523 nt of DNA from Escherichia coli. GTDB taxonomy: Bacteria > Pseudomonadota > Gammaproteobacteria > Enterobacterales > Enterobacteriaceae. Each line of letters starts with the position of its first letter. The first letter of the stretch is position 1. Shown in pieces: positions 1 to 523 of this stretch. The stretch lies in the NCBI RefSeq assembly GCF_003334765.1, contig NZ_QOWT01000116.1, one strand, 5' to 3'. The notes beneath the pieces are model-generated. The model searched no databases and was not told where the DNA came from. It saw only the letters and a list, made by a program, of their open reading frames with translations. A program made the position numbers and the translations under genes.

Positions 1-351
1 GGTGGTCACTGCGATACCGCGATTGCCTCTGCGCTTTCCATCATCGTCGCGCCGCTGGTACGCGGTCGTATTCCGACGCTGGTGGATAACGTGCTGACCT
101 GCATCACCCCGGGCTCCAGTGTCGATATTCTGGTCACAGACCACGGCATCGCTGTTAACCCGGCACGTCCGGAGCTGGCAGAACGTCTGCAGGAAGCGGG
201 GATCAAAGTGGTTTCTATTGAGTGGCTGCGTGAACGTGCGCGTCTGCTGACCGGTGAGCCACAGCCGATTGAATTCACCGACCGCGTCGTTGCCGTTGTG
301 CGTTACCGCGATGGCTCGGTGATCGATGTTGTGCATCAGGTGAAGGAATAA
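1..351 (+). CDS. citF: Citrate lyase alpha subunit (citrate CoA-transferase), C-terminal fragment; 5'-partial, CDS continues upstream of the window. Stop codon TAA at 349-351.
   Basis: Frame 1 is open from base 1 to TAA at 349-351 (GGHCDTAIASALSIIVAPLVRGRIPTLVDNVLTCITPGSSVDILVTDHGIAVNPARPELAERLQEAGIKVVSIEWLRERARLLTGEPQPIEFTDRVVAVVRYRDGSVIDVVHQVKE*). I recognise this translation as the C-terminus of enterobacterial CitF from memory, not from a search. Codon usage is E. coli-like (CTG Leu, CGT Arg, GGC/GGT Gly, ATC Ile). It is immediately followed by citX, as expected for citCDEFXG. The ORF-track start at 82 is an internal GTG (Val) codon, not the true start. Confidence 0.9.
   Translation, partial: GGHCDTAIASALSIIVAPLVRGRIPTLVDNVLTCITPGSSVDILVTDHGIAVNPARPELAERLQEAGIKVVSIEWLRERARLLTGEPQPIEFTDRVVAVVRYRDGSVIDVVHQVKE
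342..348 (+). promoter_or_regulatory. Ribosome-binding site (Shine-Dalgarno, GAAGGAA) for citX, embedded in the last codons of citF
   Basis: GAAGGAA at 342-348 has its AGGA core at 344-347, leaving a 7-nt spacer (348-354) before ATG 355. This matches the anti-SD complement and sits within the canonical spacing range. It overlaps the citF codons AAG-GAA and the stop. Confidence 0.6.
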
Positions 352-354
352 GTC

Positions 355-523
355 ATGCACCTGCTTCCTGAACTCGCCAGCCACCATGCGGTGTCAATTC
401 CCGAGCTGCTCGTCAGCCGGGATGAAAGGCAAGCACGGCAACACGCCTGGCTCAAGCGCCATCCTGTTCCACTGGTCTCCTTTACCGTGGTTGCGCCTGG
501 GCCGATTAAAGACAGCGAGGTCA
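355..523 (+). CDS. citX: Apo-citrate lyase phosphoribosyl-dephospho-CoA transferase (holo-citrate lyase ACP synthase, EC 2.7.7.61), N-terminal fragment; 3'-partial, CDS continues downstream of the window.
   Basis: ATG at 355-357 is preceded by a Shine-Dalgarno at optimal spacing. The open frame runs to the window end, giving [57 protein letters not shown] recognise this as the N-terminus of E. coli-type CitX from memory, and its position directly downstream of citF matches the known operon order. It is absent from the supplied ORF track, presumably because it has no stop inside the window. Confidence 0.88.

Follow-up and report, generated by a model that had tools for sequence, protein, structure and literature searches.

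The in-frame citF-citX junction of Escherichia coli is very probably an ordinary operon boundary with a coincidentally shared frame

We analysed a 523-nt stretch of Escherichia coli DNA (the window) in which the end of citF and the beginning of citX lie in one reading frame. We are highly confident that this junction is the ordinary boundary of two cistrons of the citCDEFXG(T) operon, with CitX made as a separate protein, initiation of citX probably coupled, and a shared frame without coding significance. The junction itself is already known, as it is annotated in thousands of genomes and its +3 distance is tabulated in a published survey. The result is of little importance in its own right, and its use is a negative one: the shared frame can be dropped as a candidate for recoding or fusion.

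The initial annotation placed both genes in frame 1, with the TAA at 349-351 and one GTC codon as the sole barrier between them, and both the coordinates and the translation agreed with this. Frame-1 translation of positions 1-523 showed one stop only within 174 codons. The citF TAA (349-351), the GTC (352-354), and the citX ATG (355-357) follow one another directly, and with the TAA just one codon before it, ATG 355 has no in-frame start ahead of it. The features of the window are listed below.

1-348, plus strand: 3' part of citF (citrate lyase alpha subunit), last 116 sense codons; TIGR01584 profile match and RefSeq annotation under the match
343-347, plus strand: Shine-Dalgarno-like (SD) AAGGA for citX, within the final two citF sense codons (AAG GAA); duplex with the 16S rRNA 3' end, motif kept in orthologues
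349-351, plus strand: citF stop codon TAA; read in the sequence, with a stop at the homologous position in 77 of 77 loci where citF precedes citX
352-354, plus strand: 3-nt intercistronic spacer GTC (GCC in K-12); sequence comparison, spacer letters not conserved
355-523, plus strand: 5' part of citX, 56 codons from the ATG; CitX profile matches, and the annotated 183-aa CitX starts at 355

In the profile search, the upstream part of the window matched the citF model TIGR01584 at profile positions 376-492 of 492 (E 2.6e-51), and the downstream part matched two CitX models, both from profile position 1 (NF002383, positions 1-56, E 3.6e-21; TIGR03124, E 3.2e-12), which placed the two parts in the CitF and CitX families, respectively. 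The window scores stayed below the whole-protein cut-offs because the window holds fragments only, and the full-length genes are annotated citF and citX. By megablast, 5422 of the 5426 complete E. coli genomes contained the window at full length, under citF and citX annotations in every case, and in RefSeq the gap between the two genes is 3 nt in the best-matching E. coli genomes as well as in K-12. K-12 has GCC for GTC as its spacer and agrees with the window at all but 15 of 523 positions.

The best match to the window, at 522 of 523 bases, lies in E. coli strain 746 (NZ_CP023353.1, 910480-921002; our locus L001, 1-10523), and it is not the native dpiBA-citCDEFXG-citT locus. L001 is a second citCDEFXG cluster, flanked by an amidohydrolase gene, an MFS transporter gene, an acnB paralogue, and IS66 remnants, and this second cluster of strain 746 looks like an acquired island. 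Across E. coli, matching places exceeded matching records by 45, two places were on plasmids, and the native locus of another strain was 99.4% identical to the window. On the minus strand, the window carries an antisense ORF of 90 aa opposite citF (6-278) and one of 39 aa opposite the junction (336-455); with openness as the sole point in their favour, both look like the usual chance ORFs opposite G+C-rich coding sequence.

The genes of citCDEFXG(T) are contiguous and on the same strand, as in a co-directional coupled pair, and citCDEFXG is listed as a transcription unit in the supplement of PMC10666635. No promoter-like or terminator-like site was seen within the 523-nt window. All five junctions of the operon are tight (+14, -4, +10, +3, and -26 nt). 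When gene starts were compared modulo 3, one of the five junctions, citF-citX only, was in frame, against about 1.7 by chance with a prior of one in three for neighbours sharing a frame. Chance alone would thus account for the shared frame of citF and citX. In E. coli, citX runs 26 nt into citG in a different frame (L001 5881-5906, beyond the window), and elsewhere the two are often a single CitX-CitG protein.

For the cross-species comparison, one genome per species was scanned with a CitX alignment, which gave 80 loci, or 81 together with the E. coli locus L001. citF stood directly upstream of citX in 77 of the 81, and the citF stop and the citX frame were located in each of them. The results showed that the stop codon was kept in all 77 loci, while the frame offset was 0 in 37, +1 in 9, and +2 in 31. 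The spacer ranged from -4 to +29 nt, and 71 of the 77 loci fell between -4 and +8 nt. citX had no citF upstream in four loci (L063, L067, L078, and L081, from an uncultured bacterium, a Lachnospiraceae MAG, a Xanthobacteraceae genome, and Klebsiella grimontii). Klebsiella keeps citX apart from citCDEFG, and the four loci fit this arrangement.

The 3-nt in-frame spacer was invariant in 27 loci of the core Enterobacteriaceae plus Edwardsiella, comprising Escherichia, Citrobacter, Salmonella, Intestinirhabdus, Buttiauxella, Atlantibacter, Pluralibacter, Edwardsiella, and two further Enterobacteriaceae. Its letters turned over freely among orthologues (GTC, GCC, ACC, ATC, AGG, GCG, and CCG). Spacer lengths in other lineages were as follows.

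Serratia, seven species: 4 nt
Serratia marcescens group, three species (L032, L034, L037): 3 nt, in frame
Hafnia: 3 nt
Ewingella and a related Enterobacterales genome (AwEntero): 2 nt
Pragia: 3 nt
Budvicia: 7 nt
Tolumonas: 19 nt

The CitX N-terminus (MxxxxPxLA) is equally long in both Serratia groups, so the difference between 3 and 4 nt lies in the spacer itself. The junction is found near position 2480-2500 of each of the Serratia loci L026-L037. In the orthologous clade, there were at least four independent frame changes: within Serratia, between Hafnia and Ewingella/AwEntero, between Pragia and Budvicia, and in Tolumonas. The paralogous Klebsiella-type loci mostly showed TAATG or TGATG (-1) and ATGA (-4) overlaps, or spacers of 2 or 5 nt. 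Whatever the frame class, most loci had CitF ending at one and the same place, ...QVKE, and a few exceptions carried one or two extra residues. In L044 (Enterobacterales MAG), L062 (Sodalis sp.), and L071 (Martelella alba), CitF is two residues longer (K-E-D-D/A) and the stop abuts the start (TAAATG, TAGGTG, and TGAGTG), a 0-nt spacer that is also in frame; these junctions lie near 2470-2480.

Judged from these sequences, what is conserved is the proximity of the two genes together with the SD-like motif in the citF tail, and not the frame. The invariant 3-nt spacer in the 27 loci, taken alone, could be read as constraint. We infer that it stems from common descent and from the small chance of an indel in a target of only 3 nt, to which selection on the SD-AUG distance may add. 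The frame itself is not required, because sister lineages have 2- and 4-nt variants. The initial annotation had proposed aligning the junction for conservation of frame and spacing, and had taken a frame that varies freely among close homologues as evidence against a meaningful relationship. The alignment gave a divided answer, since the spacing did not vary in the 27 closest Enterobacteriaceae and Edwardsiella loci and did vary one step further out, in Serratia, Ewingella, and Budvicia. The view that the shared frame is most probably coincidental was borne out by the changing offset among orthologues and by the single in-frame junction among the five of the operon.

Fused CitF-CitX proteins were then sought in two protein collections. 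When CitX was compared with a word-indexed set of 5.8 billion proteins, none of the 120 closest matches listed was longer than 243 aa and none was a CitF-CitX protein. Against 1.84 billion representatives, no CitF-CitX was present among the best 150 of 2402 matches (E <= 0.001), and these 150 comprised CitX on its own, about 180 aa long, and proteins of 430-490 aa in which CitX precedes CitG. CitX-CitG fusions were common, with three representatives matching both the CitX and the CitG models, so the natural fusions of this kind to which the initial annotation referred do exist in many representatives. A synthetic query made of the CitF C-terminus, Q, V, and CitX, which would rank an E. coli-like stop-loss fusion first, found no such fusion among the 5.8 billion proteins and gave one distant double-domain match, P0277.

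P0277 (436 aa, with CitF and CitX Pfam domains) was rejected as a fusion. It comes from L083 2523-4582 (GCA_037975565.1, JBBCBH010005575.1), where citF homology is spread across four reading frames and the ORF passes into citX through a frameshift close to the citF end; the real junction, ...RQVKD TGA AC ATG, is out of frame. P0277 is an artefact of assembly indels, because citF spans four frames and the true junction is out of frame, and it gives reason for caution, as CitF-CitX "fusions" in databases can be assembly frameshift artefacts. P0131 and P0202 were also set aside, as their N-terminal extensions are unlike the CitF C-terminus, and so was P0069, in which the extension is C-terminal and unrelated. 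P0069 (243 aa, on a 3.7-kb Logan contig) joins CitX residues 1-125, at 99% identity, to an oligopeptide-transporter ATPase C-terminal domain (PF08352), and is most likely an assembly chimera or a rearrangement. A fused protein would need one uninterrupted ORF, and a stop stood between the genes in 77 of 77 loci. Neither a citF-citX fusion nor readthrough between the two genes was discussed in any open-access paper that we found.

Two readings that would give the shared frame a coding meaning can be weighed against these results. According to one, an ancestral CitF-CitX fusion was split by a nonsense mutation, and the shared frame is a relic of this gene fission. In-frame adjacency with a minimal spacer is the expected trace of a recent nonsense split, but fused CitF-CitX is absent from the best 150 of 2402 CitX representatives and from both word-indexed searches, CitF ends at ...QVKE in most loci of every frame class, a functional SD and an ATG are present, and the distant lineages mostly overlap, in frame +2. 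We regard fission as extremely improbable. The other reading holds that low-level readthrough of the UAA is functional and, through a CitF-Val-CitX fusion, keeps the holo-ACP synthase attached to the lyase complex. It has in its favour the matching frames, with only one stop and one codon between citF and citX, the in-frame 3-nt spacing that is invariant in 27 close relatives, and the precedent of an accessory-enzyme fusion in the pathway, CitX-CitG. Against it, the frame is broken in 40 of 77 species, Serratia congeners included, citX has its own SD and ATG, and the fusion-shaped query of 5.8 billion proteins returned no genuine CitF-CitX protein. The stop codon and the surrounding RNA speak against it as well.

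The stop codons at the 37 in-frame junctions were TAA in 30, TAG in 5, and TGA in 2; the junction of the window, too, has TAA and not a leaky stop codon or context. As for the base that follows, Poole et al. are said to have ranked G second-best after U in 1995. In E. coli reporters, mean readthrough of TAA amounted to 0.01-0.05% of the wild-type signal at every temperature tested, less than for the other two stops, and TGA leaked most in the reporter libraries; in this one reporter study, G after the stop lowered termination accuracy relative to T (PMC11126739). The initial annotation had called TAA followed by G an efficient termination context, which is right for TAA as the most accurate stop and is qualified, for the G, by this one study. 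Its statement that meaningful readthrough is unlikely agreed with the low leakiness of TAA, the stop in 77 of 77 loci, and the lack of a genuine fusion protein in our searches. The main text of a proteome-wide readthrough study does not mention citF. The frame conservation expected of programmed readthrough was not found across the 77 loci and was confined to the core Enterobacteriaceae and Edwardsiella, and no stimulatory downstream RNA element was detected (Rfam at E <= 1; fold of 300-410). Nothing in the citF stop context points to recoding. With the least readthrough-prone stop at the junction (0.01-0.05%, PMC11126739), TAA far more frequent than TGA at in-frame junctions (30 and 2 of 37), and no stimulatory structure or Rfam element, functional readthrough appears highly improbable. 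We give next to no credence to the related idea that the 3-nt in-frame spacing of Escherichia, Citrobacter, Salmonella, and Edwardsiella is kept so that rare readthrough or stop loss produces a CitF-CitX fusion; if true, such a fusion would put the holo-ACP synthase on the lyase complex during assembly.

The putative ribosome-binding site of citX lies inside citF. AAGGA (343-347) ends 7 nt before the citX ATG and forms a duplex of -5.7 kcal/mol with the 16S rRNA 3' end, so that the motif of the downstream gene sits in the 3' end of the upstream one, as in coupled pairs. It is a motif of moderate strength only, and anti-SD matches that equal or exceed it arise by chance at other sites of the window and in coding sequence. 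AAGGA(A/G) was present in 27 of 27 core 3-nt junctions and GGAG in Serratia, with one or the other in nearly all orthologous junctions. AAG is the rarer Lys codon in E. coli, and because it is retained in the citF tail, a constraint beyond coding is suggested. No Rfam match was obtained in the window at E <= 1, and the fold of 300-410 was not significant against shuffled sequence (z = -0.34). In the minimum-energy fold, at window positions 342-368, the SD region GAAGGAA pairs with CUUCC of citX codons 4-5, and such a hairpin, as modelled, could keep the SD occluded until citF is translated. This hairpin was set aside, given the fold z of -0.34 and pairing bases that differ in Citrobacter.

According to the explanation that we favour, ribosomes translating citF would terminate at the UAA (349-351) and release the alpha subunit of about 55 kDa, and citX would be made separately, as a protein of 183 aa, from its own AUG at 355. 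CitX has been purified as a 20-kDa protein. The AAGGA at 343-347 in the citF tail would serve the citX AUG, and with only 3 nt between stop and start, initiation at citX and translation of citF are probably coupled. We infer both the occurrence of this coupling and its route, which may be that terminating ribosomes re-initiate locally, that translation of citF prevents folding of the start site, or both. The shared frame would then be incidental, following from the chance length of the spacer, 3 nt.

The distance of +3 nt falls within the range of about -8 to +10 nt seen in coupled pairs. Such a range is taken as predictive of termination-reinitiation, and among the 2,987 co-directional gene pairs of E. 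coli, 707 have distances from -8 to +6 nt; native pairs of E. coli with distances of -8 to +10 nt showed coupling, for which the final 15 nt of the upstream gene were enough (PMC10666635). That survey, made independently, agrees with our comparison: its supplement lists the E. coli citF-citX pair with a distance of 3, and for the CitF-to-CitX COG pair it gives a median distance of +3 and quartiles of -3.4 and +10 from 105 gene pairs. For +3 nt spacers, published findings diverge. As cited in PMC10666635, a synthetic-operon study reported coupling about ten-fold lower at +3 than at -4, and a paper entitled 'Ribosome recycling is not critical for translational coupling in E. coli' (PMC7538156) questions a portion of the re-initiation model. 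Both would favour an uncoupled start, in which free 30S subunits begin citX de novo at its own SD and AUG and the short spacer merely reflects genome compaction, and the recognisable SD at a good distance suits such a start as well. Yet in 71 of 77 species stop and start keep a distance of -4 to +8 nt although the sequence turns over freely, and the coupling of native E. coli pairs at such distances through the last 15 nt of the upstream gene (PMC10666635) also argues against it. We consider an uncoupled start unlikely, and coupled initiation of a separate CitX is the explanation that we retain.

In comparison with known systems, citF-citX resembles the CitX-CitG (CitXG) fusions in pathway and in the adjacency of an accessory gene. 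CitXG, however, is a genuine single ORF with CitX N-terminal and CitG C-terminal, whereas citF and citX are separated by a stop in every genome examined with citF before citX, and E. coli citX and citG are themselves separate genes. Programmed readthrough sites likewise have a downstream ORF in the same frame directly past a single stop, but here the stop is UAA instead of a leaky UGA or UAG, no conserved downstream structure is present, the frame varies among orthologues, and citX carries initiation signals of its own and encodes an enzyme known as a separate protein. By the features that can be tested, citF-citX is neither a programmed readthrough site nor a fused protein. The closest likeness is to termination-reinitiation pairs (Huber et al. 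2019, 2023; PMC6728339, PMC10666635), with both genes on the same strand of one operon, a distance of +3 nt, and the SD inside the upstream gene; it differs from the commonest of these pairs by having no -4 (ATGA) or -1 (TAATG) overlap, and it was scored as not forming a heteromeric complex (PMC10666635). By its sequence features, citF-citX belongs with the closely spaced coupled pairs of operons, and coupling itself is predicted for it.
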